Shown one piece after another: positions 19,850 through 53,864 of a stretch of 53,864 nt of DNA (within the stretch, counting starts at the first letter, position 1; each line of letters opens with the position of its first letter). Under the pieces are notes generated by a model, which did no database searches, was not told where the DNA came from, and saw only the letters and a program-made list of their open reading frames with translations. Made by a program: the position numbers and the translations under genes. The stretch is from a virus (taxonomy: Duplodnaviria; Caudoviricetes): the IMG/VR virus record IMGVR_UViG_3300034068_000313, positions 1-53,864 of that record, one strand, 5' to 3'.

Positions 19850-20152
19850 TCAGTTGGTTGTACCGCGTGACTGTTTCGGGGGTGTCGGTGTGAAGGGTTC
19901 AACAGTAGTTACAACAATTCTAGGCGTCATATCGTAAACACTTTGCAACCACTCCATAGCGGTTCGTAGCGTGTTCGCTTTGTCTTTCGGGTTATAGGTG
20001 TACATGGTCCGATATGGCTCAGTGACTACTTCGTAATCGTTATCGGCTACCCATTGCTCGACCTGTTCTTGGTATGTGTATTTGCCGTCCTCAGAAACGA
20101 TCTCTATACCGTCTGCTTCTAATATCCAATCCATGTGGTCCTCACAGTCCAA
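19850..20152 (-). CDS. Small acidic protein, candidate immunity protein of the MuF toxin
   Basis: Overlaps the MuF stop by 11 nt; same AT-richer composition as the MuF C-terminus. Confidence 0.55.
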   Translation of the reverse strand: MDCEDHMDWILEADGIEIVSEDGKYTYQEQVEQWVADNDYEVVTEPYRTMYTYNPKDKANTLRTAMEWLQSVYDMTPRIVVTTVEPFTPTPPKQSRGTTN

Positions 20153-23100
20153 CCAAGATACCTAATAAGTACCTAATGTATTCATCACCATTTTTTCGCA
20201 TACCTGCCCAGCCTTCATAGAACAGTCGCTCAACTCCTCGCGTCGTCACCTCTGTTGAACCCCACGTGTAGAGGCGACCTGTGTACAGGTCGTTGACTCC
20301 TAAGTCCCAACCTACCTCACCTTTGGTAATTGTCTTAGGTTTGCTCGAACTTGTGAGACCGCGTTTCTTACCTAAGCGGTTGATGATTAGGTATTCACTA
20401 TTGGTGACACCTCGTACGTCCTGAACGCTGTGTTGGAACTCATGGGCTAGAGTCGAACGCCAACCTCTAATGCCTTTACCACTGTTCGTCTTATCACCAC
20501 TCAAAGCGATTGTTCGTTCTCTCGAACTGTTGTAACCACGCTTCGTAAACTTGAGTGTCCAACCTGAACCTCGTGTTTGCGTGATCGTGTCCTCAACCCA
20601 TTCCGCGGGCAACATTCCGTCAAGTTCCTCAATGGCGTCTGTCCAATCTTTCTTCTTCACACCAGTGGGCAGTTTCACGTCACGGAAGTAACTGGCTATC
20701 GACGCTCTCGGTTGTCCGTACCTTGGTCGTGATGCTCGCAGTACGTCCTTCAGTACAGCGTTGTGCATATCGACTACCCGCTTGGCGATCTTGCCCTTTT
20801 CGGCACGCAGTTGTAGCACTTTGTCGTTCACTTTACCCCTCGCGTCCATCGCTTGACGCCAACGTTCAATGGCCTCGTTTAGTTCGGGGACCTTCGCAAA
20901 TTCATCGAAGCGTGTTGAACTAAGACGGATATCACCAACACCTGCAAGGTCATCAATAATCCTTGCCCAAGTCTTCTCACCACCGAAGTAGTCCACCCTT
21001 AGAAGTTGCGCGAGTAAACGACCAGCGGACGTGTCGCCCTCTTCAACGATTGCTTCGAGTAAAGCCTTGCGGCTCTTGTCATCAAACACGAGAAGCGTGT
21101 TTGCTACTTCGTCCTGTACTGGTAGGTCAACATACGACATGAGGGCTTTGGTTCTAGGGCTAACTGCGTCACTCGTGATTCGATCTAATATGCTGGTCCA
21201 CGCTTTGCGGTATTCCGACGTCATGTTCAAAGCCATTTTGTCGAGTTCATACTTCGCCTCGTCAATCAATTTATCTATGGCTCGGATGTCGTCTTGGGCT
21301 GTTGGGTCCAGTCTGCGGACCTCCTGCTCGATCTTGGCTAGTACACGAGCGCCTGCTTTATCGATAGCGTCCATCGCCGCTGTGTCATTGGGGTGTTCGT
21401 CCCAACCAATCCAGTCCGACGTCGAGCGAGACTTCGCGCCTGACTTTGATATGAGTGCAATGTCGTCACGTAAGTCTTCAATATCGACAACAAGGTCGGG
21501 GCGAGCACCACTCAACGGACCTGCTGTAGGGCTTAGGCCTGTCGGTGTTTGTACGGTGGGAAGTTTCATGTCAGGTCGTTGGAACATCTCACCGACCTTG
21601 AAGTTGTGTTGCTTCAAGTTTTCCTCAACACGGAACGCGCTGCTACCCTTCAGCGGTACAAACTCTTCCATCATTCCCGTGTTCCTGTTTGCCCTAACCC
21701 ACCTGCCATCGTTGAGACGCAGTATTGGCTGACCCAAATACTGCTCACCCTCAAGAACAACTATTCCCTCGCGACTGATTTCGAAGCCGACGACATCTCC
21801 ACTCGGTGGAACGTACTGCGACGCGGGTGCTGGGATTGGTGTTGGCTCAGGGACTACGGGTTTCGGTTCAGGGGCTACGGGCTTCGGTGGCTTCACGCCT
21901 GTTGGTTTGAACTCTTCACCGGGTTTGAACTTGTTTCGCTTCAAGTGTCGTTCAAGTTGTCCCGCTGCACTGTTCTGTGATGGTGTGAACTCTGTGTAGT
22001 AGTTGCCGTTCGGTTCGGCGATGCGTTCCCACTTGCCGTCGGCTGTTCGTCTTATAGGTGACCCGTTGTGGTAGGTGTCGGGTAGTTGAATTGTGCCATC
22101 AGTGTTGATACGGAACGCGGGTATCTTGCCGTCTCTGTCGAACTCTTGACGGTCAAGCAGAGTTGGCTTCACAGGTGGCTCGGGAACAACGACTACAGGT
22201 TCGGGAACGATCGGTGGCGTTGGTTCAGGTACTACAGGCTTCGGCGGTGTTGGTACTCCACCTTTGACAGCGCGTTCGATTTTGCCTGCGGCACTGTTGC
22301 GTGACGGAATGAACTCTTCGCGTACGCCGTTCTTATCATTCCTGAACCAGCGTCCTGTTGGGTCACGTTCGATGTCTGTACCCGGAACTTGAACACGTCC
22401 GTCGGAGTGAACATGGAACTCTACGTCCTCGCCACTTACGACACGACGTTCAACGGAGAAGCCTTCGGAAGGTGTTGTTGGTCGGGGTGCCGACACGACA
22501 TCGCCCGCGTCTAAGTTGGGCAACGGTGGGAAGTCATCGAGGTTCGGTACGTCGGGTACTGACACACGGAACGGGTCGCCGGGTGTGCCTGTGCCTAAGC
22601 CTTGCGTCGGTCGTCCTTGTGGTGAAGCGTTGAGCACCATTGTGCAACGGCAGTTGGGGTGCGCTGGCGGTGTCATCTTCTTGATGCTGAACGGTTTGTT
22701 GATCGGTTGGTTCTGTCCGTTCAACGGAGCACAGATTGGACATACGTCCATCGGTCCAGTGACCCACACTTTGCGTGCTGTTTGTTTGTTGATGAGTCCA
22801 CGGTCGGCTGCTTGGTTCCATGCTTGCTGTTTGCCTTCGTTGTAGGCCATCATGGTTTCGGTACGTGCGATTGTGCGTGCTCGTTGGCGTCGTAGTTTCT
22901 CTGCGTATTTGTTTGTGTCTGTTTTGATCTTCTCTAAAGCCTTGGTGCCTTCGATGCCTTGTGCTGTCAGTGTGTTGGCAACTTGTGTTGCTCTGTTGAA
23001 CAGTGCTTGCTCATACCTGACTGTGAGACCGTTAGCGTTGACACCGAGTGTGCGTGCCATGAGTTTGCCTGCGTCTGTACCCGGACTCACTTGCGACAGT

Positions 23101-23648
23101 ATGGCTCGCAGGTTCTTTGATGTACCTGCACGTGTGTCGCCTGCGCCGAACGACTGACCAACAACACGCCTGACCATTGCTAGTTGGTCCTTCTTCATGT
23201 TGGTGACCAGTTTGCTTGACTCGTCTCTAGCCCACTTCAAGGCTTCGGGGCTTTGTGCGTTGAATGAGAACGCCATTGTGATCTCTGCTGGTGTTGGCAG
23301 TTCTGCTTTGGTCAATGCGTTGATGAATTGCTGCGACAGGTCTTTGGCTTCTGCTTTGGCTGACTCGACGAGTTGTTTGTGTAGTTCGCTTGCTAACTCG
23401 GACTCAATGACAGAGAAGGCACGTTCGACTTCTTTCTCATAGCCTGTGTAGTAGATGTTGTTGACTAACTTCTCAAACTCTTCGGGGCGTATCATGCTGA
23501 AGCCGTCAAGCAACGACTCACTCATTGCTCGCTCGGCGCTGTTCAATGCGGTGTCACCAATGTTGCGTGCGTTATTGAATTCGATAACGCGTTTAGCAAC
23601 GAGCGGTACAGCCGTCGTTCGTTTGATGTGACGCCCGAAGATGGGCAT
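20142..23648 (-). CDS. MuF-family minor head protein with repeats and C-terminal HExxH metallopeptidase-like domain
   Basis: RARTIARTET…KVWVT…CPICAPLNG…PPAHPNCRC; Pro-rich linkers; TLAHEFQH near the C-terminus. Confidence 0.88.
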   Translation of the reverse strand: MPIFGRHIKRTTAVPLVAKRVIEFNNARNIGDTALNSAERAMSESLLDGFSMIRPEEFEKLVNNIYYTGYEKEVERAFSVIESELASELHKQLVESAKAEAKDLSQQFINALTKAELPTPAEITMAFSFNAQSPEALKWARDESSKLVTNMKKDQLAMVRRVVGQSFGAGDTRAGTSKNLRAILSQVSPGTDAGKLMARTLGVNANGLTVRYEQALFNRATQVANTLTAQGIEGTKALEKIKTDTNKYAEKLRRQRARTIARTETMMAYNEGKQQAWNQAADRGLINKQTARKVWVTGPMDVCPICAPLNGQNQPINKPFSIKKMTPPAHPNCRCTMVLNASPQGRPTQGLGTGTPGDPFRVSVPDVPNLDDFPPLPNLDAGDVVSAPRPTTPSEGFSVERRVVSGEDVEFHVHSDGRVQVPGTDIERDPTGRWFRNDKNGVREEFIPSRNSAAGKIERAVKGGVPTPPKPVVPEPTPPIVPEPVVVVPEPPVKPTLLDRQEFDRDGKIPAFRINTDGTIQLPDTYHNGSPIRRTADGKWERIAEPNGNYYTEFTPSQNSAAGQLERHLKRNKFKPGEEFKPTGVKPPKPVAPEPKPVVPEPTPIPAPASQYVPPSGDVVGFEISREGIVVLEGEQYLGQPILRLNDGRWVRANRNTGMMEEFVPLKGSSAFRVEENLKQHNFKVGEMFQRPDMKLPTVQTPTGLSPTAGPLSGARPDLVVDIEDLRDDIALISKSGAKSRSTSDWIGWDEHPNDTAAMDAIDKAGARVLAKIEQEVRRLDPTAQDDIRAIDKLIDEAKYELDKMALNMTSEYRKAWTSILDRITSDAVSPRTKALMSYVDLPVQDEVANTLLVFDDKSRKALLEAIVEEGDTSAGRLLAQLLRVDYFGGEKTWARIIDDLAGVGDIRLSSTRFDEFAKVPELNEAIERWRQAMDARGKVNDKVLQLRAEKGKIAKRVVDMHNAVLKDVLRASRPRYGQPRASIASYFRDVKLPTGVKKKDWTDAIEELDGMLPAEWVEDTITQTRGSGWTLKFTKRGYNSSRERTIALSGDKTNSGKGIRGWRSTLAHEFQHSVQDVRGVTNSEYLIINRLGKKRGLTSSSKPKTITKGEVGWDLGVNDLYTGRLYTWGSTEVTTRGVERLFYEGWAGMRKNGDEYIRYLLGILVGL

Positions 23649-28204: not shown

Positions 28205-28588
28205 TCACGATCGAGTGATTGCTATTGGATTCAAGACGATTGCTTTGAACTTGTCGACGTATGCGCCGCGTAGGAATGTTAGGTCTATCCATTGTTTGGC
28301 TTCTATTAGGTCCTCGAAGTAAACGTTGACGGTCTCGAAGTGTGGTTGTACACGGTAGAGCAGACCGTAGGGCTTGTTGTTGAACACGTCTTTTCTTTCG
28401 TAGATACGCACGCCGCGGAACTCTTCCACTGTGGGTCGGTCGATCTCTCTATCTTCTACTTCGAACTCGTAGTCCCTGATACGTATTTGACCTGCCTTGA
28501 TCATTTCAATGGCTTGCTCTTCGGCGTCGTCTTCATCTACTGCTTCGATGTTCACGCTTGCAAAGATGGCTACTCGGTAGTGTTTCAT
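28205..28588 (-). CDS. Hypothetical protein
   Basis: ACAGGAGA RBS; coupled to the methyltransferase stop. Confidence 0.7.
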   Translation of the reverse strand: MKHYRVAIFASVNIEAVDEDDAEEQAIEMIKAGQIRIRDYEFEVEDREIDRPTVEEFRGVRIYERKDVFNNKPYGLLYRVQPHFETVNVYFEDLIEAKQWIDLTFLRGAYVDKFKAIVLNPIAITRS

Positions 28589-29430
28589 TTCTTCTCTCCT
28601 GTTGTGGTTTGTTTGTAGATTCGGTTGGACGCGATGAGTGCGTACTCGGGATTGATTTCTGTACCGACGAAGTATCGTCCGTGCCTCACTGCTACTACTC
28701 CCACGGTGCCTGAACCTGTGAACGGGTCAAGGATTAGGTCATCGGGGTTGGTTGATGAGATGACACAAGGTTCGACGAGTGCTTCGGGCATGACGGCGAA
28801 GTGTGCTCCCCTGTAAGGCTTGGTCGGGATTGTCCATACGGATCTCCTGTTACGCAGTGACACCTCGTCAACGGCTTGCTCACGTATGTCCTTAGCGTTC
28901 ATCAAGTACGACGGTGACTTACTGAGCAAGAAGAGGTACTCGTGTGCCTTGACGCAACGGTCAGCGATGGGTTCGGGCATAGCGTTCGGCTTCGACCATA
29001 TGATGTCCTGACGTAGATACCAGCCGTCGGCCTGTAGTGCGAACGCGACCTTCCACGGTATGCCGATGAGGTCTTTACGTTTCAAGCCTTCGGGAATGGT
29101 TCGTCGTCGTGTGTCGTCGTTGATGCCTTGCTTCTGTTTGACCTTGCCGTATGTTCCGTTGGTGTTGCCAACTTTGTTCGACGCATAGTTGTCGCCAAGG
29201 TTTAGCCACAGCGTGCCGTCGTCTTTGAGGACACGCCACACCTCTTTGAACACTGCGACGAGTTGTTCAACGTACTCATCGGGTGATGCTTCAAGACCGA
29301 TCTGTAGGTCGTTGCCGTAGTTCCTCAGTCCCCAATACGGCGGCGAGGTAATACAGCACTGAACACTCTTGTCGGCTATCTCCTGTAGGCGTACGCGTGC
29401 GTCACCGACCTTGATGTCCGCAAAGGTCAT
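28585..29430 (-). CDS. DNA amino-methyltransferase (beta class, probably N4-cytosine)
   Basis: Motif IV TSPPY precedes motif I DPFTGSGT. Confidence 0.92.
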   Translation of the reverse strand: MTFADIKVGDARVRLQEIADKSVQCCITSPPYWGLRNYGNDLQIGLEASPDEYVEQLVAVFKEVWRVLKDDGTLWLNLGDNYASNKVGNTNGTYGKVKQKQGINDDTRRRTIPEGLKRKDLIGIPWKVAFALQADGWYLRQDIIWSKPNAMPEPIADRCVKAHEYLFLLSKSPSYLMNAKDIREQAVDEVSLRNRRSVWTIPTKPYRGAHFAVMPEALVEPCVISSTNPDDLILDPFTGSGTVGVVAVRHGRYFVGTEINPEYALIASNRIYKQTTTGEKK

Positions 29431-29930
29431 TTGCCTGTGCCGTCGTTCGACAGTTGTTGAAGCGTGAGTGCGATACGTTTGCGAGCCAGTGTGACTGACC
29501 CTTGTGCTAAGTCTTGATCAAGTTCTTCCAAGATTGTTTTGAGCAGGCGGGTGCTGACGTTCGGTTTGTATGGGGCGAGTTCCCTACCTTGGGCGTACTT
29601 GGGTAGCACGTACACTTGGCACTTGTTTCGGCGTTCCGTAAGCCTTACGACGTAGCCCGCCTTATGCAGCACAGACAGGACTCCAGACGCGGCTCCGTGG
29701 TGTAACCCCATTTCGTCCCCGATCTCGCCCCATATCGCGCCACAAGCGCCTTTGCGAGCAAGTATGTTGAGGACGCCCTGCTGGCGGTCCAGTGTGTAGC
29801 CCTTCTCAAGGTCACGGGATTCCCGCTCTTGGCTTGTCGCCGAGCCGCTCCAGCCCGCCGTTCCCGCGTACGGGAGAACGGGGTGGAGTAGGTCGTCCAC
29901 GACATCAAACAAGGTCGGGCGTTCGTTCAT
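29427..29930 (-). CDS. Winged-helix DNA-binding protein
   Basis: WGEIGDEMGLHHGAASGVLSVLHKAGYVVRL. Confidence 0.7.
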   Translation of the reverse strand: MNERPTLFDVVDDLLHPVLPYAGTAGWSGSATSQERESRDLEKGYTLDRQQGVLNILARKGACGAIWGEIGDEMGLHHGAASGVLSVLHKAGYVVRLTERRNKCQVYVLPKYAQGRELAPYKPNVSTRLLKTILEELDQDLAQGSVTLARKRIALTLQQLSNDGTGK

Positions 29931-30157
29931 GAGATACGCAACCAGTCGCCGCCGACGAACACTTCGGCAAACATCATGAAGTTCGATGACGTGGCGATGT
30001 CCATTCCATCGACCGTCATGTAGCGCAACGTGCCGTGGTATACGCGCCACGCGTGGACGTAGTGAAGGGTGTTCGCTGCATCGCCTCGGAAGTAGAACCG
30101 CACGGGACGACCACACTCTTGCCATTCTGTTGTCGAGGGTGTTGTCTCAATACTCAT
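29927..30157 (-). CDS. Hypothetical protein
   Basis: GAGGAG RBS; ATGA coupling. Confidence 0.6.
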   Translation of the reverse strand: MSIETTPSTTEWQECGRPVRFYFRGDAANTLHYVHAWRVYHGTLRYMTVDGMDIATSSNFMMFAEVFVGGDWLRIS

Positions 30158-31687: not shown

Positions 31688-32038
31688 TCAGTCACACTCG
31701 CTGATGGTTGAAGTCCAGTCGTGGCGACCAACGAACAAGGTCGACAGGCTGGGTTCAAGTGCGACTGCCAAGTACTGCCACTTGTAAGCCTTCACCGTCT
31801 CAGGGAGCACGCGTAAGCCTCTCATGAGTTTCGGTTCGAAGTGGCCTCGTGACGTTTCATAGAACCGAACTTCGTCGTACGAGATCGAGCCGTCCGTACC
31901 GCCTGAGACGTTCGTGGCGAGGATTTGGATTGTGTAGTTGTCGCCTCGCTTCTGTGGGACGACTGCGGTGAGCACTCCCGTCTTCAGTGGCGGGAATGCT
32001 TCCGTGTCGTAGTTGATGTGGTATGTCATGTTGCTCAT
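31688..32038 (-). CDS. Hypothetical protein
   Basis: Coupled to the upstream gene. Confidence 0.65.
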   Translation of the reverse strand: MSNMTYHINYDTEAFPPLKTGVLTAVVPQKRGDNYTIQILATNVSGGTDGSISYDEVRFYETSRGHFEPKLMRGLRVLPETVKAYKWQYLAVALEPSLSTLFVGRHDWTSTISECD

Positions 32039-32592
32039 GCCTTTCGTGCGATCGCTTCGATGTTTTCGATGTTGATGTAAACCTTGCCGAAGGACTCTCC
32101 GTCGCCTTCAGGCTTGTTCTCGTCGTACGACGCTGTCTTGAATCCAACCTTGATGACGCCGTACTTGTCTTCCTCAGGGGCGACCCAAAATACTTCGCCC
32201 GATAGTCCTTTGGGGTACTTGCGACCCTTCGTAACAACGACCAGTGCGCCGCGTACGATCTCGCCTGCTGCGATTGCGTTGGCGTTGGCGTTGGCGATTG
32301 CTTCCTTGCGACGGAAGTGTGCTGCCTGTGCCTCAAGGGTGGGGACGCACTTGTGGGCTGGGTAGATGGTCTTGATGTGGCGACCACTTTCTCCGTGGAT
32401 TGACACCTCGACGGCGAGGTAGGTCTTGCCTGTGTTGTTGGATACCTTCCACATCACGAGCGACGAGCAGTCTTTGCAAAGAAACTCCTCACGGGTTTTC
32501 GACCTGTGCAATGGCTGGTACTCGGGAAGTGGGCTTACTGCTGTCATGGTGGTGTTCATGGCTTCTCCTGTGGTTGTTGTGGTGGTTGTCAT
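32035..32592 (-). CDS. Hypothetical protein with KOW/SH3-like C-terminus
   Basis: GALVVVTKGRKYPKGLSGEVFW motif. Confidence 0.7.
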   Translation of the reverse strand: MTTTTTTTGEAMNTTMTAVSPLPEYQPLHRSKTREEFLCKDCSSLVMWKVSNNTGKTYLAVEVSIHGESGRHIKTIYPAHKCVPTLEAQAAHFRRKEAIANANANAIAAGEIVRGALVVVTKGRKYPKGLSGEVFWVAPEEDKYGVIKVGFKTASYDENKPEGDGESFGKVYINIENIEAIARKA

Positions 32593-32593
32593 T

Positions 32594-32803
32594 TCAGTTG
32601 CCTTTCAAACTTTCAACGATGCAGACCACGCACTTGTGGCCCAACGGCGGCTCGCCTGCAACGGGCGACGGGATGTACATACCGCAGATTGCGAGGTCGG
32701 GGTACTGCATAATGTGGAACATCACGTTGTCTTTGTTTCGGTGCGTGTGCTTGTTTGTGTCTGTGTTCATGGTTGCTCCTGTTGTGTTTGTGGTGGTTGT
32801 CAT
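32594..32803 (-). CDS. Hypothetical protein
   Basis: 5' end nearly identical to that of the next gene; H…CG…CVVC. Confidence 0.6.
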   Translation of the reverse strand: MTTTTNTTGATMNTDTNKHTHRNKDNVMFHIMQYPDLAICGMYIPSPVAGEPPLGHKCVVCIVESLKGN

Positions 32804-32804
32804 T

Positions 32805-33119
32805 TCACTTGCCTGCCTTCATCATCACGCGAGCCAACATTGCGCTCAACGACTTGGCGATCAACTTGTTTGGCGCGTCTGCGATTGCGTACACGAGTGC
32901 GTCTTCAACTTCGTCTTGGAAGCACAGGTCCCACGCTGCGAGGCGGAGGCCGTGCTTGGTGGGGTTGCTCATCTTGATGAACGCTCCGCAGTCACGGGTC
33001 ATCACGTGCTCTGCCCACACGCGGGGTGCGCTGGGTCCATCGAGGTACAACGTCATGTCGGTGTACATGAATTCGAGTTCGAACTCGGCGGCTATTTGCT
33101 GTGCGGTGGTGTCGTTCAT
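32805..33119 (-). CDS. Hypothetical protein (first gene of cassette 3)
   Basis: Leaderless ATG 6 nt after the -10 of P3. Confidence 0.7.
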   Translation of the reverse strand: MNDTTAQQIAAEFELEFMYTDMTLYLDGPSAPRVWAEHVMTRDCGAFIKMSNPTKHGLRLAAWDLCFQDEVEDALVYAIADAPNKLIAKSLSAMLARVMMKAGK

Positions 33120-33195
33120 ACCCCCACACTACAAGCAGGGTGGTACAGGGATCAACGAATGATAGAAAAAGACCCTCTATGCAGGGCTTATGTCC
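33117..33195 (-). promoter_or_regulatory. Promoter P3 (TTGATC-18-TAGTGT), leaderless, with TATGCAGGG box upstream
   Basis: -10 at 33131..33126, -35 at 33155..33150; AAAAAGACCC..TATGCAGGGCTTATG shared with 44096..44122. Confidence 0.8.
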
Positions 33196-33331
33196 CCGAA
33201 TAAGGGGATCGGGCGTTTATTTGCGCCGTGTTGCGACGGGGGTTCGGGGTGGGGACTTTGTCCGTCTTGTGGGGGATTGCGCCTTACAGCGCGCCACAGC
33301 GCGTGATACGAGCGAACTGTCGTCGTGGGCG

Positions 33332-34237
33332 TCAGGGCGTGACAGGGGTTTGATGCAGGGACAGCAACTCGGCTCGGGCTTCGGGGTTGGTCCTGAACAC
33401 TCCACGCATGGCACTCGTGACTGTGTCGCCACTCTTCTTGATGCCACGCATACTCATGCACGTGTGCTGTGCCGACACGACAATGCCGACGCCCTTTGGT
33501 TGCAAGTGTTCCTCGATTGCGTCAGCGAGTTGGCCTGTCAATCGTTCTTGGACTTGCAACCTGTTTGCGTAGCAGTCAAGCAGTCGTGCCAACTTCGACA
33601 AGCCGACAACACGTGACGTCGGTATGTAAGCGATCGTCGCATGACCGATGAACGGCAGAATGTGGTGCTCGCACAGTGACGTGAATGGCAACTGCCGTAC
33701 GACGACCATCTCGTCGTAAGCAACATCGAACGTCTTGCTCAAGATCACTGCGGGGTTGTCGTTGTAACCCTTAGTGAGTTCACGCCAAGCCTTGGTCACG
33801 CGCCGTGGTGTTTCGAGTAAGCCGTCACGTGTGGGGTCTTCGCCGACGTGTTGAAGCAAACGGATAACGGCGTCAACAGGGTCGCCGTCCTCTTTCTCCC
33901 AAGGGAACGCGAGCCAACGGTCAGTGGTGGTTGCGTTGGGTGAATACATTGCGGGCGACCAAGGTTTACGGAACAACGTCTCCACGTGGATGCCACCGTC
34001 GGGGCGAACCAGTTTCATTGTTCGTCCTGTGTCAATGAGGTCGTCAACGATCAACGTGTGCGGGTCGTCAGGTGTTTCACACAGTGGGAGACCAAGTTTG
34101 TTCGCGACGAGTGTTGCGACTACAGCACCGCCCGTAGGGATACCGTAGACGCCTGTTGGGTTGTTACGTACGCGGGCGCATAGTTTGTCGACCTCTTGGT
34201 GAATGTCGTTCCAAGTGAGAGTCAGGATTGTTGTCAT
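33332..34237 (-). CDS. folE: Fusion of a type I phosphoribosyltransferase (Gpt-like) and GTP cyclohydrolase I
   Basis: N-terminal YGIPTGG…LIVDDLIDTGRT…WLAFPWE; C-terminal GEDPTRDGLLETPRRV…SLCEHHILPF…GLSKLAR…QVQERLT…HTCMSMRG. Confidence 0.92.
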   Translation of the reverse strand: MTTILTLTWNDIHQEVDKLCARVRNNPTGVYGIPTGGAVVATLVANKLGLPLCETPDDPHTLIVDDLIDTGRTMKLVRPDGGIHVETLFRKPWSPAMYSPNATTTDRWLAFPWEKEDGDPVDAVIRLLQHVGEDPTRDGLLETPRRVTKAWRELTKGYNDNPAVILSKTFDVAYDEMVVVRQLPFTSLCEHHILPFIGHATIAYIPTSRVVGLSKLARLLDCYANRLQVQERLTGQLADAIEEHLQPKGVGIVVSAQHTCMSMRGIKKSGDTVTSAMRGVFRTNPEARAELLSLHQTPVTP

Positions 34238-34238
34238 G

Positions 34239-34982
34239 TCATACTCCTCTTTGATCACCGAAGGCTAAGACGTGAAGGCGTGTGGTGACGTTGGTGCCTT
34301 CCGCTGTTGCGATGTCAAACAGATCGGGCAGACGCCGATTGATTTCGTCTGCGCTTCGACCCTCAGGCATCAAGTAAATATCTTTCATGGACAGGCCGTG
34401 GAGACGAACCATCTCTTTGATCTCTAACAGGTCACGTACAGGGTCGCAGATGACAAACTTGAACGAGTGTTGCGGACACTCGATGAAACGTTCAAGAGCG
34501 TTCGGTACGTAACGCTTCGCAACGTGGACCCCCGACGACGCAAGTTTCGGTGACACGTTCCACTGCACGAGTTCAAAGATTGCTAACGGCGGTTCAATCG
34601 TTCCGTTCGTTTCGATCTCAACGCGGTAGTCGGGGTTCACGTCGAGCAACAGGTGTACCAGTTTGACCAGTCCAGCCTTCTGTACCAACGGCTCGCCACC
34701 AGTAATGACGAGTCGGTTCGTACCGCTCGCGGCAAACCAATCAACAATCTCTTCAAGTGTTACGCGTGACAGTTGTTCGGCCTTGTCGTACTTGACTCCG
34801 TTCTTGCCTGTCCAATCCCATGTGAAGGGTGTGTCACACCACGTGCAGTCAAGGTTGCAAAGACCCAAGCGTAAGAACATGGCTGGCTTACCGAGTGATG
34901 GTCCTTCGCCTTGCAACGTAGGACCGAACTTCTCTGCAACACTTAGTGAGCGCCCGTTCTGTATCACGTAGTAGTCGGTCAT
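34239..34982 (-). CDS. queE: 7-carboxy-7-deazaguanine synthase (radical SAM)
   Basis: TLQGEG…FLRLGLCNLDCTWCDT…TGGEPL…IETNGT…SPKL. Confidence 0.95.
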   Translation of the reverse strand: MTDYYVIQNGRSLSVAEKFGPTLQGEGPSLGKPAMFLRLGLCNLDCTWCDTPFTWDWTGKNGVKYDKAEQLSRVTLEEIVDWFAASGTNRLVITGGEPLVQKAGLVKLVHLLLDVNPDYRVEIETNGTIEPPLAIFELVQWNVSPKLASSGVHVAKRYVPNALERFIECPQHSFKFVICDPVRDLLEIKEMVRLHGLSMKDIYLMPEGRSADEINRRLPDLFDIATAEGTNVTTRLHVLAFGDQRGV

Positions 34983-35425
34983 CAACTCGCCTGCCACGAC
35001 GCTGCATTCTTTTCGTTCTCCCAACAGGTCACACGAATGACCTTTGCGTTGGGGAATCTCATGGCGGTCAATGTAACTGCTTGGTCACGTACCCAATTGA
35101 CCATGCCTTCCATTGTTGGGTCCATGATGCGAAGGTCTAAAGCGTCGGCCGCACCTAGGTATTGGATCTGTTCGAGGCACGGGTCGTCCTCGCTCACTAG
35201 CACAGTGTGATCGAATTGGTATTCAAGAGCGTCCCGTAGAACTTTGAGGTCGGCGAAGTCAACTACCCAACCACGCTCGTCGCGTGTGCCTTCCCACTCA
35301 ACCTCGACCCAACGGTCGTAGCCGTGAAGGTAATGGCAGTGACCACGATCTCGCCATTGGCGGTGACAGCAGGGGAAGCCGCCGAAACGTTTGATCACTC
35401 TTAGGATTTCATCTTGGGTCGTCAT
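34982..35425 (-). CDS. queD: 6-carboxytetrahydropterin synthase
   Basis: CHRQW…CHYLHGY…VVDFADLK…FDH…E…WENEKN. Confidence 0.92.
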   Translation of the reverse strand: MTTQDEILRVIKRFGGFPCCHRQWRDRGHCHYLHGYDRWVEVEWEGTRDERGWVVDFADLKVLRDALEYQFDHTVLVSEDDPCLEQIQYLGAADALDLRIMDPTMEGMVNWVRDQAVTLTAMRFPNAKVIRVTCWENEKNAASWQAS

Positions 35426-36098
35426 AGTGTGGCCTCGCTAGGTAGTCGGTTGGATCTTCGATCCCTGCTAATTCAAATGCTTCACGGCGCTCAAAGCAAG
35501 TACCACATGACCCGCAATGAATTTCACCACCCTTGTAGCACGACCATGTATCAAGCCAAGGTACGTTGAGGTCGTTGCCGATGGTACAGATTCCGTCTTT
35601 GGGGATTTGTACGTACGGTGCAAACACTTTGAAGTCTTCGTCAATGAATCCTTCGTTGGCTACGAGTAGCAGGTTCTGTAGAGCGTCGATGAACTGTGGT
35701 CGGCAGTCGGGGTAGATGTAATGATCGCCTGAGTGGACAGCGGTAGCGAGTACGTTTGCGCCCACTGTGACGGCGTAGCCCGCAGCGATGTTGAGCATGA
35801 TGCTGTTGCGGTTTGGTACGACCGTCTTTCTCATGTTCTCTTCGGCGTAGTGACCGTCAGGTACGGGTGCATCGCTGGTCAGTGTGGACTTACTGATGAG
35901 TCCTGTGAGGTGTGTGATGTCAACGATCGTGTGGTTGAGACGGAGTTTGCCTGAAGTGACCTTGGCGTAGTCAAGTTCTTTCTTGTGTCGTTGTCCGTAG
36001 TTGAACGACATGAGATGAACGTCGTAACCCTTAGCCACAAGATCGTAGGTGAGAACTGTTGAGTCCATTCCACCGCTGACGATTGCTAACGCTTTCAT
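35409..36098 (-). CDS. queC: 7-cyano-7-deazaguanine (preQ0) synthase
   Basis: SGGMDS…YGQRH…VPNRN…YPDCR…TWSCY…CGSCGTC. Confidence 0.96.
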   Translation of the reverse strand: MKALAIVSGGMDSTVLTYDLVAKGYDVHLMSFNYGQRHKKELDYAKVTSGKLRLNHTIVDITHLTGLISKSTLTSDAPVPDGHYAEENMRKTVVPNRNSIMLNIAAGYAVTVGANVLATAVHSGDHYIYPDCRPQFIDALQNLLLVANEGFIDEDFKVFAPYVQIPKDGICTIGNDLNVPWLDTWSCYKGGEIHCGSCGTCFERREAFELAGIEDPTDYLARPHYDDPR

Positions 36099-37246
36099 TC
36101 TGTTTCTCCTTTGGCTGCTGTGATTAGGTTTTCTATTGACCCCTCGGCGAGGTGTAGGTGTAAACCTTTGTCGCCTTGTGACTTTGTTTCAGTACCCGTC
36201 GCACGGTAGTGATGCAACTTGTTTGCCCTAGTGGGCAGTGGTACCGCGCCGTGTTTCTTTCTTAGGAACTGTTCGTACGCACGCCAAGAGTTAGCCGCTA
36301 CGGGAATGATCTTTGTTCTGTGGTAGCGCGAGCGGTCGGCTATGTCTTCAGGGTCGCCGCCGTACTTACGAATGAACGGTGCCAACTTGTAGATCGACTG
36401 TGCGTCGCCTACGCCACACGTTTCGAACTTACGACCTGTCCACACTGCGAGTCGACCGAAGCGGTGACCCATTCCCCACGACGATGAGTCAACACTGAAC
36501 CAAGGTAACGCTTGAATGATGTCGTTGCGTGTTTGCCCGAAGCCGTGAAACACTGTGTCCTTACCCTCAACTCGTTTGAAGCAGGTTGCTGTCCACTTCA
36601 ACGCTGTAGGTCCGGGTACACCTACCATTCCACCGAGCGCGATGTAGCCGTAGTCCTTTGCCATGTCGTCAAGCACTTTGAGGTCGGTGCCAGTGTGTAC
36701 GACTGGCATTGGGTTCAAGCCTTGGTTCTCTAAGTACCGTTGATTGACCGCTGTTGCTTTCGCATCTCTAATGACGTCAAGGTTTACGTATGTCGTGAAC
36801 AGTGATTCCCATTGCTTCAACCAAGCCGCGTAGTCCGCAACCTTTACGTCGGCACCCTGTGAGTAAGCACTGAACGCACCCGAGTCGGCGAACACCATTG
36901 GGCGTGTTGGGAACTTTGCTAACACTGCCGCGATGTCGACCTTCTTGTAGTAGTGATATGAGATCAACATCTTGAAGGGTTGTGCTTGTGTTGCTTGTGC
37001 GGTGGGGAGTTGTTTCTCTTCTCCGCTTAGGGCTAAGTGAAGGTTGAGTCCTTCGGTGTGTTCTTTCATGTCTGCCTCTGCGATTGGGGGAACACTGTTG
37101 AGAGCACTGAGTACGAGGTACACGTGCGGACCTGTGTTGGTGATTGCATTGGCTTCATCGGTCTTTGTGACAAGGTATACGTGAGGTCCGTTACTCGTTG
37201 ATGAGTGGGTCGGCGTAGTCGAGGAGTGTGTTGATTCGTTCGTCAT
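36095..37246 (-). CDS. dpdA: DNA-guanine transglycosylase (TGT-like, DpdA)
   Basis: ISYHY…FADSGAFS…NLDVI…PVVH…IALGG…HGFG…SVDSSSW; located in the que cluster. Confidence 0.85.
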   Translation of the reverse strand: MTNESTHSSTTPTHSSTSNGPHVYLVTKTDEANAITNTGPHVYLVLSALNSVPPIAEADMKEHTEGLNLHLALSGEEKQLPTAQATQAQPFKMLISYHYYKKVDIAAVLAKFPTRPMVFADSGAFSAYSQGADVKVADYAAWLKQWESLFTTYVNLDVIRDAKATAVNQRYLENQGLNPMPVVHTGTDLKVLDDMAKDYGYIALGGMVGVPGPTALKWTATCFKRVEGKDTVFHGFGQTRNDIIQALPWFSVDSSSWGMGHRFGRLAVWTGRKFETCGVGDAQSIYKLAPFIRKYGGDPEDIADRSRYHRTKIIPVAANSWRAYEQFLRKKHGAVPLPTRANKLHHYRATGTETKSQGDKGLHLHLAEGSIENLITAAKGETE

Positions 37247-37793
37247 CGTCCTTGCCTTCTACTGTTGCGAACACTCGTTGCCAGCGTGCGTTGGTTTCGG
37301 GTTCGACCTTGATTGAGATGGTGGGGTTGAACACTGAGTCGTCGTCATGAGCACCAATGTTCTTGATGAGGTCATCAAGGTTCGGTGGAGTCAAGAGTCG
37401 TTCTAAGTCTTCAAGGTCGATGTCGTTGTATCCCGAACCCTCTAGCCCGCCTTCGGCTTGTGTTAGGCGTAGTAGGTCGATCAACAGGTCGTCATCGTAA
37501 GACGCGACGTCGTTTGAACGGTTGTCCACGAGCAGTAGTTTGCGAGCCTGTTGGTCATCTACATCAACCCAAAGCACGGGTATCTGTTCGATGCCTACAT
37601 TGACCGCAGCCTGATAGCGGTGGTTACCGACGACGATGTGGCGTGTTGCCTTCTGTACTACAAGCGCACCATAGAAGCCGTTGGTACGGATTGAATCCTC
37701 AAGTCGGTCTAGGTTGCCGCGGCGTGCGTTCTCAGGGTGGAGTTCGAGTGTGCTTACATCGACCAGTTCGTAATCACTTGGTAGCAGATTCAT
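37191..37793 (-). CDS. ParB/Srx-like N-terminal domain protein
   Basis: HPENARRG…SIRTNGF…IVVGNHRYQAA…LVDNR; directly upstream of dpdA. Confidence 0.88.
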   Translation of the reverse strand: MNLLPSDYELVDVSTLELHPENARRGNLDRLEDSIRTNGFYGALVVQKATRHIVVGNHRYQAAVNVGIEQIPVLWVDVDDQQARKLLLVDNRSNDVASYDDDLLIDLLRLTQAEGGLEGSGYNDIDLEDLERLLTPPNLDDLIKNIGAHDDDSVFNPTISIKVEPETNARWQRVFATVEGKDDDERINTLLDYADPLINE

Positions 37794-38022
37794 CGTTGTC
37801 CTTTCGGTGGATCTCATTCCACACTGTTTGATTCGTCAGGCCGAGGGCATTGGCGATTTGGCGTTGGGGAAGTTTGTCGTCCTTCCATGCTGACCGTATC
37901 AGGTTCCTGCGCTCATTGTTGCGATTCATGATCTCTTGTTCGAGCCGACGCATCTCTTCAGTGAGGTGTCGAGCCTTCTCAAGTTTCTCATTCATGGATT
38001 CAGTTGTGATTGTGTCTGTCAT
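37774..38022 (-). CDS. Small HTH DNA-binding protein
   Basis: LPQRQIANALGLTNQTVWNEI. Confidence 0.8.
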   Translation of the reverse strand: MTDTITTESMNEKLEKARHLTEEMRRLEQEIMNRNNERRNLIRSAWKDDKLPQRQIANALGLTNQTVWNEIHRKDNDESATK

Positions 38023-38023
38023 T

Positions 38024-38362
38024 TCAGCCTCCTACGGCACGTACATTGGCACAGATTGTTCTCATCGCGTCAAGCCTTGAACGGGAAGCGATGAGGGATT
38101 GTTGGGTTGCTTTCTCACGGCCCGTGAGTAGTTGCCATTGTCGAAACTCGTCCGCAGCGCGAAGGTGTGCCACTGCGTCTTTGGTTGCGACAGGTATTTT
38201 GCCTTCTTGTTCGAAGATGGCACGGGCGTGTTTGTAACGGTACGACGACTCCGCTTCGGCTCGTTCCGTAGAGAGTTGCAGTAGTAACTCAATGTCGGTC
38301 TCCATGCGTGTACAGATTCGAAGCATCTCTGCTTCAAGATCCATTTGAGATATGTTGTTCAT
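38024..38362 (-). CDS. Helical hypothetical protein in the recombination block
   Basis: MNNISQMDLEAEMLR…RLDAMRTICANVR; coupled to rusA. Confidence 0.7.
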   Translation of the reverse strand: MNNISQMDLEAEMLRICTRMETDIELLLQLSTERAEAESSYRYKHARAIFEQEGKIPVATKDAVAHLRAADEFRQWQLLTGREKATQQSLIASRSRLDAMRTICANVRAVGG

Positions 38363-38724
38363 TCTTCCTCGGTCACTATGAGCCGAAGTCCATCTCGTCC
38401 GCACACTTGCACAGCGTGAAAGGTTATTGACGATAGGTATTCGGGATTGTCGTCTTTGATAACGCCTGAGTCGACGATGCCATCTATTGCCGCTTTCACG
38501 GCTGGATAACAAGCACCAACGTCGGGTCGCCACCGTTTGTCTTTTGCTAATGGGATTACGTCGACTCTTATCTTCTTGAGTTTCGGTACGCCCGCTTGCC
38601 TTGCCAAGATCAACCATCGCTCGCGTGTGTCTTTGATCATTCGCGCACGCTTGTGATGATGCCATGTTCGTTCGGCGTTAGTTGTCCACGGACGAACCGT
38701 GTCCTCTATCGAATACCGAACCAT
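38359..38724 (-). CDS. rusA: RusA-like Holliday junction resolvase
   Basis: PD…YPAVKAAIDGIVDSGVIKDDN. Confidence 0.85.
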   Translation of the reverse strand: MVRYSIEDTVRPWTTNAERTWHHHKRARMIKDTRERWLILARQAGVPKLKKIRVDVIPLAKDKRWRPDVGACYPAVKAAIDGIVDSGVIKDDNPEYLSSITFHAVQVCGRDGLRLIVTEEE

Positions 38725-53853: not shown

Positions 53854-53864
53854 ACGAAGAACCA
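53850..53864. repeat. 15-bp terminal direct repeat, copy 2
   Basis: Identical to 1..15. Confidence 0.9.

Follow-up and report, generated by a model that had tools for sequence, protein, structure and literature searches.

A compact Gpt-type phosphoribosyltransferase fused to GTP cyclohydrolase I, a candidate accessory module of 7-deazaguanine DNA modification in phages

The DNA analyzed here is IMG/VR record IMGVR_UViG_3300034068_000313 (Duplodnaviria; Caudoviricetes) from position 1 to position 53,864, a complete 53.9-kb siphovirus genome by CheckV (100%), and the whole of this stretch is called the window below. The last gene of its putative 7-deazaguanine operon encodes a single protein in which a compact type I phosphoribosyltransferase (PRT) domain precedes a complete GTP cyclohydrolase I (FolE) domain. 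The modification of phage DNA with 7-deazaguanines is under active study as a means of resisting restriction, and the published gene lists that we know of end at FolE, QueD, QueE, QueC and their variants, the transglycosylase DpdA, and a few tailoring enzymes. On the basis of its sequence we classify the additional domain as a loop-less Gpt-type PRT that appears to have been recruited as an accessory module of this known DNA-modification pathway. The reading that we favor, with a probability of roughly 0.55, is that the domain would join the guanine freed by DpdA to phosphoribosyl pyrophosphate (PRPP), yielding GMP and refilling the GTP used by FolE.

The original prediction for this DNA, made from its letters and translated reading frames, was of a single open reading frame (ORF) with a compact Gpt-like PRT and a complete FolE, and it has held up: the ORF is present at exactly the predicted span, and Pfam, NCBIfam and PHROGs find both domains in it. 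The protein matches the Pfam families Pribosyltran (PF00156, 33.7 bits, gathering score 26.3) and GTP_cyclohydroI (PF01227, 235.4 bits, cut-off 27), as well as phrog_8995, 'phosphoribosyl transferase' (2.3e-13), and phrog_2197, 'GTP cyclohydrolase' (1.2e-67). The motifs singled out in that prediction, GIPTGG, IVDDLIDTGRT and WLAFPWE, are all found in the translation. The longest frame at the locus runs from a GTG start and spans 33332-34258 on the minus strand (308 amino acids). The likely true start, however, is the ATG at 34237, because it has AGAGGAG 8 nucleotides (nt) upstream and overlaps the stop codon of QueE; the resulting 301-residue form supplies the residue numbers used throughout.

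Judged by its sequence and by a predicted structure, the N-terminal domain is closest to 6-oxopurine enzymes of the Gpt type, also known as xanthine-guanine phosphoribosyltransferases (XGPRT). A PDB sequence search with residues 1-127 gave meaningful scores only from purine PRTs, namely those of Pyrococcus horikoshii (1vdm, 9e-9), Sulfolobus (GpT-2, 4z1o, 2e-6) and E. coli (XGPRT, 7e-6). An AlphaFold model of the fusion protein, built on 49 homologues, had a mean predicted local distance difference test score (pLDDT) of 94.5, and a structural search with its PRT half returned Yersinia XGPRT (Z 13.6), Sulfolobus HGXPRT (Z 13.4), 1vdm (Z 13.2, root mean square deviation 2.6 over 116 residues), Helicobacter pylori XGHPRT (Z 12.4) and a Gpt-like protein of Neisseria gonorrhoeae bound to guanosine tetraphosphate (ppGpp) (5vog, Z 11.8), with the regulators PyrR (Z 9.1) and PurR (Z 7.9) lower. 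Every PDB match came in two pieces, leaving about 24 residues of the solved enzyme unmatched: residues 51 or 54 to 58 of the query span the gap where E. coli XGPRT has 57-80 and the P. horikoshii enzyme 53-75. The missing segment, which we take to be the catalytic flexible loop of type I PRTs, sits between the helix of the pyrophosphate (PPi) loop and the strand of the PRPP loop, where the model has 12 residues between helix 37-48 and strand 61-68. The PF00156 match, above the gathering score, covers the PRPP loop only; the motifs of both the PRPP loop (VDDLIDTGRT) and the PPi loop (TGG) are present. Compared with XGPRT-type and archaeal purine PRTs of known structure (E. coli 1a95-1a98, Yersinia pestis 6kp5/5xtk, P. 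horikoshii 1vdm and Sulfolobus GpT-2 4z1o), the window domain shares the type I fold (Z 13.2-13.6), the PPi-loop Gly-Gly, the DDLxDTGxT signature, equivalents of K115 and W134, and the FPWE hood; it differs in having no counterpart to some 24 residues that lie between helix 2 and the strand of the PRPP loop, in its fusion to FolE, and in being a protein of phages. A homodimer prediction for two copies of residues 1-118 scored 0.10 and 0.15 (mark 0.42) and is uninformative either way.

Conservation is concentrated where a PRT would contact its ligands. In 49 fusion proteins the PRT halves share a mean pairwise identity of 49% (minimum 33%) and the FolE halves 62%, and fifteen PRT residues are invariant: G36, G37, A41, D65, D66, L67, D69, G71, T73, K91, W108, F111, P112, W113 and E114. 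G36 and G37 were likewise without variation in an alignment of 40 fusion proteins. D65, D66, D69, G71, T73, K91 and W108 align with D88, D89, D92, G94, T96, K115 and W134 of E. coli XGPRT, and every position aligned with a PRPP, PPi or base contact of that enzyme (these seven plus G36 and G37) is among the invariant ones. The same contact positions are at least 90% conserved in 150 PRT representatives with a mean column identity of about 11%. We take D65 and D66 to be the two ribose-binding acids, D69 to be the Asp that contacts purine N7 in HGPRT and XGPRT, K91 to be the Lys that contacts O6, and W108 to be the base-stacking Trp.

The FolE half is complete. It scores 221.3 bits against TIGR00063 (folE; cut-off 181.6), covering profile positions 4-177 of 180, and its PF01227 match spans positions 4-178 of 179. 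Solved FolE structures are matched with Foldseek TM-scores of 0.86-0.94 (target-normalised), and 4uqf with Z 24.2 in the structural search. C189, H192 and C260, presumably the FolE zinc ligands, are invariant in the 49 homologues. Between the two halves, residues 117-122 form the block of lowest pLDDT in the AlphaFold model (mean 75).

The fusion is widespread among phages and is hidden by its annotation. Among GenBank phages, 405 records match the fusion protein, and in 38 of these the match extends over both halves, with a coverage of at least 80%. The fusion-bearing groups include Pseudomonas Nipunavirus (PaMx25, NP1, JG012 and others) and phages of Stenotrophomonas, Xanthomonas, Variovorax, Sphingomonas and Vibrio, and all 38 records are annotated merely as GTP cyclohydrolase. 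In PaMx25 (JQ067084.3; L001:5865-6795 in our locus numbering) the annotation divides the region into a 124-residue 'hypothetical protein' in another frame (PaMx25_38) and a short folE (PaMx25_37); the DNA itself has one frame of 297 amino acids with both domains (L001:5902-6795). Lengths of 288-333 amino acids and a coverage of 89-99% of the fusion protein characterize the 120 best homologues from a large protein collection, and these are called GTP cyclohydrolase I or IA wherever the source gives a name. In IMG/VR, at least 487 contigs have a match to the PRT motif confirmed by tblastn, and the 80 loci fetched from them all carry both halves in one frame. Full-length homologues and intact single frames on this scale argue that the fusion is no artefact of sequencing or of a lost stop codon. 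Cellular genomes differ: a scan of prokaryotic genomes (GTDB, one per species), dominated by ordinary FolE since one of the search patterns lies within FolE, found the fusion in 1 of the 80 best loci among the matches listed. This is an indication rather than proof that the fusion is rare in cells. The sole cellular locus (L086), on a contig of a metagenome-assembled genome, has the gene row QueE-QueC-QueD-fusion-DpdA.

The surroundings of the fusion gene tie it to 7-deazaguanine synthesis. Profiles made from the window's own proteins and their first-round hits, uncurated and applied at thresholds of E up to 1e-4, detected QueE in 78, QueD in 78, DpdA in 70 and QueC in 59 of the 80 IMG/VR fusion loci, and 79 of the 80 hold que or dpdA genes. 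In nine of the ten loci with no DpdA match the contig breaks off upstream of QueC or QueD, where DpdA has its usual place, after a few hundred bases at most. The tenth, L080 (13,996 bases), extends some 9 kb upstream and 3 kb downstream with no match to either of our two DpdA profiles (the second is described below); its transglycosylase may be divergent, or there may be none in the vicinity. The original prediction had proposed a survey of co-occurrence with dpdA, and had held that a fusion common in genomes without dpdA or que genes would speak against it; in the loci surveyed the fusion accompanies these genes, and the one cellular example, too, lies beside DpdA. QueC is missing from 21 of the 80 loci (L008, L016, L020, L023, L027, L029-L032, L034, L035, L041, L042, L049, L057, L060 and L061 among others), so the fusion is independent of 7-cyano-7-deazaguanine (preQ0) as the final base. 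As far as gene content can tell, phages with the fusion and no QueC may insert 7-carboxy-7-deazaguanine (CDG) or a base derived from it rather than preQ0.

Most relatives of the PRT domain are separate proteins. A search with the domain alone against 1.84 billion representative proteins gave 1892 matches at E<=1e-3 (138 at E<=1e-10), and the best 150 of the 1892 are mostly free-standing proteins of 112-170 amino acids; Pfam finds Pribosyltran in 123 of these 150, and GTP_cyclohydroI is the only other recurrent family (16 of 150). Free forms occur as a stand-alone PRT in Campylobacter Firehammervirus (CP220 and kin), near ribonucleotide reductase (RNR) in the Cellulophaga phages phiST, phi13:1 and phi19:2, and next to a QueE-like gene in the group of the Pseudomonas jumbo phage PA5oct. 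In Brevundimonas phage MaInes the PRT lies directly downstream of FolE, beside a deoxynucleoside monophosphate (dNMP) kinase and RNR, with QueD and QueC elsewhere in the genome. In PA5oct itself (NC_071039.1; L167:4995-6372) the mini-PRT is annotated as a hypothetical protein and stands directly upstream of the QueE-like radical S-adenosylmethionine (SAM) gene, an arrangement that suggests a deazapurine pathway in this group. Database annotations call the free form 'phosphoribosyl transferase', and the record of Campylobacter phage F379 links it to queuosine biosynthesis. These stand-alone proteins belong to the same family as the window domain, keep the same conserved positions and are carried by phages with 7-deazaguanine genes, often beside FolE; unlike it they are separate genes, and those of CP220, phiST and MaInes keep part or all of the loop insert.

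A profile of the stand-alone mini-PRT retrieved 79 further IMG/VR loci, in which distances were taken between stop-to-stop frames and are approximate. At least one of FolE, QueE, QueD, QueC and DpdA lies within 10 kb of the PRT in 72 of the 79, and the nearest pathway gene is FolE in 51 of those 72. The PRT is fused to FolE in 6 loci and adjacent to it (same strand, at most 150 nt apart) in 44, with FolE first in 32 and the PRT first in 12; FolE is further off within 10 kb in 16 loci, other que genes alone are present in 6, and no pathway gene was found in 7. Transglycosylase type follows PRT type. The window-type DpdA profile matches 70 of the 80 fusion loci (L006-L085) and 9 of the 79 free-PRT loci (L168-L246), while a profile seeded with the DpdA3 of phage immuto matches 31 of the 79 and none of the 80, from which we conclude that the fused PRT goes with the window-type DpdA and the free PRT with a DpdA3-like enzyme. 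Stand-alone relatives were found in CP220, phiST and immuto_2-6A, three phages described, in the part of the source available to us, as having complete replacement of G and carrying DpdA3 (Hutinet et al., 2023, PMC10516641). At the other end, the FolE of CAjan, 9g and Rosebush is unfused, and a profile search at E<=0.01, with PaMx25 and immuto as positive controls, found no mini-PRT in these phages. Since these three phages reach approximately 25-32% substitution according to the portions available of two papers (Hutinet et al., 2023, PMC10516641; Olsen et al., 2023, PMC10484667), the PRT is an optional accessory. A tree of 150 PRT domains (134 columns, with 83 of 147 inner branches open) needs 11 changes of the fused label, where shuffled labels need 16.3 on average; well-supported branches force at least 4 of the 11. 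This hints at repeated fusion or fission, and some rows counted as stand-alone may be truncated gene calls.

The two-domain architecture, the conserved ligand contacts and the linkage to FolE and DpdA are thus observed across phages, and the function has to be read from them. In our preferred reading, the N-terminal domain would be an active minimal 6-oxopurine PRT of the Gpt/XGPRT type that uses PRPP to turn free guanine, chiefly that expelled from DNA as DpdA inserts preQ0, into GMP. Host guanylate kinase and nucleoside-diphosphate kinase would convert GMP to GTP, and the FolE domain, part of the same protein chain, would take up this GTP as its substrate and start the next preQ0. As one GTP is spent and one guanine freed per deazaguanine, the PRT would close a cycle in which each turn costs PRPP and not a purine ring. 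Transglycosylases of the DpdA superfamily can re-insert guanine, as is established for the bacterial tRNA-guanine transglycosylase. The PRT would keep free guanine low, so that guanine could not compete with preQ0 for re-insertion; such removal should favor the exchange kinetically, and should matter most in the fully substituted phages, all of which have a PRT. We infer that the domain is catalytic, that guanine is its substrate and DpdA the source of this guanine, and that modification level or burst size benefits.

Several features favor guanine salvage. The domain is nearest to guanine and xanthine enzymes and retains the contacts for normal purines, including the Asp at the N7 position; 7-deazapurines have no N7, and for them this residue would be useless. 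It is coupled to FolE, the entry step at which GTP is consumed, by fusion and by adjacency in both orders, rather than to the steps that produce the deazapurine base. DpdA accompanies it whatever the final base, and the domain is an accessory, as a salvage booster would be. Finally, the window phage is without the polymerase, RNR and kinase that a nucleotide-level route needs: by PHROGs or Pfam, no DNA polymerase, RNR or nucleotide kinase family was matched among 66 scanned ORFs of the complete genome (batches of 10, 37 and 20, with one ORF common to the last two; three of the first 10 were among five put through a second scan), in agreement with the earlier statement that no phage polymerase is encoded. 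Of the two models put forward in the original prediction, the salvage loop stands as the best reading by virtue of the FolE linkage and the retained Asp, Lys and Trp, while its catalytic rate has come into doubt with the missing loop.

Other observations weigh against salvage. With the flexible-loop segment gone, turnover may be slow or absent, and the NCBIfam equivalog for Gpt (NF006613, xanthine phosphoribosyltransferase) is matched in two stretches with 44.5 bits (cut-off 138). Direct channeling of a metabolite to FolE is not open to the fusion, since GMP has to pass through two host kinases first, and hosts normally own Gpt and Hpt salvage enzymes. D69, K91 and W108 are kept alike in fused and stand-alone forms. 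(Active-site residues were tried as a discriminator between guanine and deazaguanine, and failed owing to this identity.) The unfused relatives in fully G-replaced phages have RNR, dNMP kinase and polymerase genes nearby, and the available part of one paper reports the nucleoside form of 7-amido-7-deazaguanine (ADG) in CP220-infected cells (Hutinet et al., 2023, PMC10516641); this neighborhood and this nucleoside also fit a route through deazapurine nucleotides.

Among the alternatives, we consider first a general booster of purine salvage, in which an active Gpt-like enzyme would feed host guanine, xanthine and hypoxanthine into the GTP pool and the guanine released by DpdA would not be special. 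The fold and motif evidence is the same as for the salvage loop, and the tightest linkage is to FolE, not DpdA. Host salvage enzymes are, moreover, known targets of (p)ppGpp, with which the structural neighbor 5vog was crystallized (Z 11.8). What makes this alternative unlikely is that the family is almost confined to transglycosylase-pathway contexts, with que or dpdA genes at 72 of the 79 stand-alone and 79 of the 80 fusion loci, and that the FolE of cellular folate synthesis is not so paired (1 fusion in the 80 best cellular loci). General boosting and the DpdA-linked loop differ in the source of the base only, and sequence alone does not separate them.

Ranking behind this, and doubtful in our view, is a non-catalytic module that would bind PRPP, GMP, guanine or (p)ppGpp and tune the activity or assembly of FolE in the manner of PurR and PyrR. 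A domain deprived of its flexible-loop segment could serve in this way, the short conserved linker (G118, P120 and D122 at 90% or more) would suit a fixed regulatory geometry, and both PRT-fold regulators and a ppGpp-bound PRT are among the structural neighbors. Most family members, however, are free-standing proteins of 112-170 amino acids, so the family must be able to work without FolE in cis. In addition, the residues of catalytic type (all of them, with the ribose-binding Asp pair and the Asp at the N7 position among them) are invariant beyond what is usual for ligand binding alone, and XGPRT-type enzymes score well above PurR and PyrR.

It seems to us improbable that the domain is a deazapurine PRT, ribosylating CDG, preQ0 or ADG with PRPP and opening a nucleotide-level branch that would supply modified (deoxy)nucleoside triphosphates to a polymerase or lead to a different end product. 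The original prediction offered this, for preQ0 or CDG, as its second model, and overall the model is weakened. In its preQ0 version it fits badly, because with 21 of 80 fusion loci lacking QueC, preQ0 is not a common substrate of the fusion family. The CDG version has a precedent in TubE, described in the portion of the source available as a PRPP-dependent, CDG-specific PRT encoded with homologues of FolE, QueD and QueE (PMC6112128). TubE and its counterpart ToyH, of the tubercidin and toyocamycin clusters, resemble the window PRT in this gene company (same portion of PMC6112128); TubE differs, by its description and not by sequence comparison, in being a separate 194-residue protein of a Streptomyces antibiotic cluster without DpdA. 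The stand-alone relatives also fit this alternative, being present in all three reported fully substituted lineages (CP220, phiST and immuto_2-6A), where RNR or dNMP kinase genes are found close to the PRT. Moreover, as far as the available part of the report goes, the DpdA3 of fully substituted phages resisted validation and an ADG nucleoside was present in infected cells (Hutinet et al., 2023, PMC10516641). Against it, the window phage has no match to polymerase, RNR or kinase families and does have DpdA, which suffices in related systems; the acidic D69 is retained throughout at the N7-contact position; and the PRT is linked to FolE, the first enzyme, not to the base-making QueE or QueC. 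Extended to the entire mini-PRT family, fused form included, as a 7-deazaguanine PRT that would make deazaguanosine nucleotides in infected cells, the proposal is no less improbable.

In the window, the fusion gene follows genes for a ParB-like protein, DpdA, QueC, QueD and QueE in an operon lying entirely on the minus strand (Table 1). The set of DpdA, FolE, QueD, QueE and QueC is complete in one row (33332-37246), and the modification itself is predicted from the genes alone. [quoted passage not shown] Pfam, NCBIfam and PHROGs together recover the neighbors that had been named at the outset, QueE, QueD, QueC and a DpdA-like transglycosylase. For this last one Pfam gives no match; it is considered DpdA-like because of its clear matches to two PHROG families, 7068 and 887, both named 'queuine tRNA-ribosyltransferase', and its identity rests further on homologues adjoining que genes in 70 of the 80 loci. 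Its longest frame opens with about 60 low-complexity residues (GPHVYLV occurs twice) and overlaps the ParB-like gene by 56 nt; the PHROG matches begin at residues 66-90, and the real start is probably further in. The ParB-like protein is encoded directly upstream of DpdA and has homologues in 35 of the 80 fusion loci; the window-type DpdA may have another conserved companion in it.

Table 1. Positions of the fusion gene, its parts and the neighboring operon genes in the window.
Feature	Position	Strand	Evidence or conservation
PRT-FolE fusion gene	33332..34237	-	301 amino acids plus stop codon; two Pfam domains in a single protein
Compact type I PRT domain, Gpt/XGPRT-like, without flexible-loop segment	33890..34237	-	residues 1-116; Pfam, NCBIfam, PDB and structure matches
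PPi loop, Thr35-Gly36-Gly37	34127..34135	-	G36 and G37 invariant in fusion alignments and across stand-alone relatives
PRPP-binding loop LIVDDLIDTGRT, residues 62-73	34019..34054	-	D65, D66, L67, D69, G71 and T73 invariant
Lys91, aligned with Lys115 of E. coli XGPRT	33965..33967	-	invariant
Hood motif W108-LAFPWE114, aligned with W134...P138-W139 of E. coli XGPRT	33896..33916	-	W108, F111, P112, W113 and E114 invariant
Short conserved linker, residues 117-122	33872..33889	-	G118, P120 and D122 kept in >=90% of sequences
Complete FolE (type IA) domain, residues 123-301	33335..33871	-	PF01227, TIGR00063 and structure matches
QueE-like radical SAM enzyme (CDG synthase), longest frame	34239..35024	-	Pfam Radical_SAM; best NCBIfam TIGR03365 (QueE) 98.7 bits, below cut-off
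QueD-like 6-carboxytetrahydropterin synthase	34982..35425	-	Pfam PTPS 81.3 bits
QueC (preQ0 synthase)	35409..36098	-	Pfam QueC 204.5 bits; TIGR00364 187.9 bits, cut-off 150.3
DpdA-like DNA/tRNA-guanine transglycosylase homologue, longest frame	36095..37246	-	phrog_7068 6.3e-47; phrog_887 1.7e-45
Protein with ParB-like N-terminal domain, head of the gene row	37191..37817	-	Pfam ParB_N 36 bits; phrog_723 1.4e-35

Genes elsewhere in the window specify a tail of siphovirus type, a replication initiator, RecT, RusA, an HNH protein and a DNA methylase. The methylase (N6/N4 type, Pfam 165.3 bits), a second DNA-modification function of this phage, adjoins a weakly matched MarR-like protein at 28585-30125 on the minus strand, about 3 kb downstream of the deazaguanine operon. 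A protein of 1168 amino acids (20142-23648, minus strand) has head-morphogenesis (MuF-like) matches over residues ~50-345 only, with its other ~820 residues unmatched. At 33172-33187 (minus strand), about 145 nt downstream of the fusion stop codon, there is a weak hairpin with a T-run behind it that resembles a terminator; in a scan of 32000-38500 for sigma-70 promoters and terminators, counts were within chance (10 terminator-like sites found, 7.5 expected). Megablast of the 10 kb around the fusion gene against GenBank phages gave no match, and a close cultured relative is not known.

A search of paper texts turned up no mention of a PRT as part of the deazaguanine pathways of phages; supplementary tables may list the gene. 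The main texts of three central papers have no word starting with 'phosphoribosyl' (Hutinet et al., 2019, PMC6884629; Hutinet et al., 2023, PMC10516641; Olsen et al., 2023, PMC10484667), and in the one paper found to mention both 'DpdA' and 'phosphoribosyltransferase', the PRT is the tubercidin enzyme. The described phage DpdA systems have the same core gene set as the window, with no PRT listed.

The mini-PRT is a further conserved component of the pathway, fused to or beside its first enzyme in hundreds of phages and with at least two classes of DpdA, and in its fused form it has been hidden under the annotation 'GTP cyclohydrolase'. If the domain ribosylated deazaguanine, the question of pre- versus post-replicative modification would reopen: at least some 7-deazaguanine DNA of phages, in particular the fully substituted genomes with DpdA3, would take up its modified base as nucleotides, before or during replication, and not only through later base exchange, contrary to the present account in which these modifications are all post-replicative. 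Whichever substrate it takes, the mini-PRT is a natural example of a type I PRT working, or failing to work, without its flexible loop. If guanine recycling, our preferred reading, is true, the pathway would be a closed purine cycle driven by PRPP, which would explain how phages can bear the cost of replacing as much as all of their G and would offer a means to increase modification in engineered systems.

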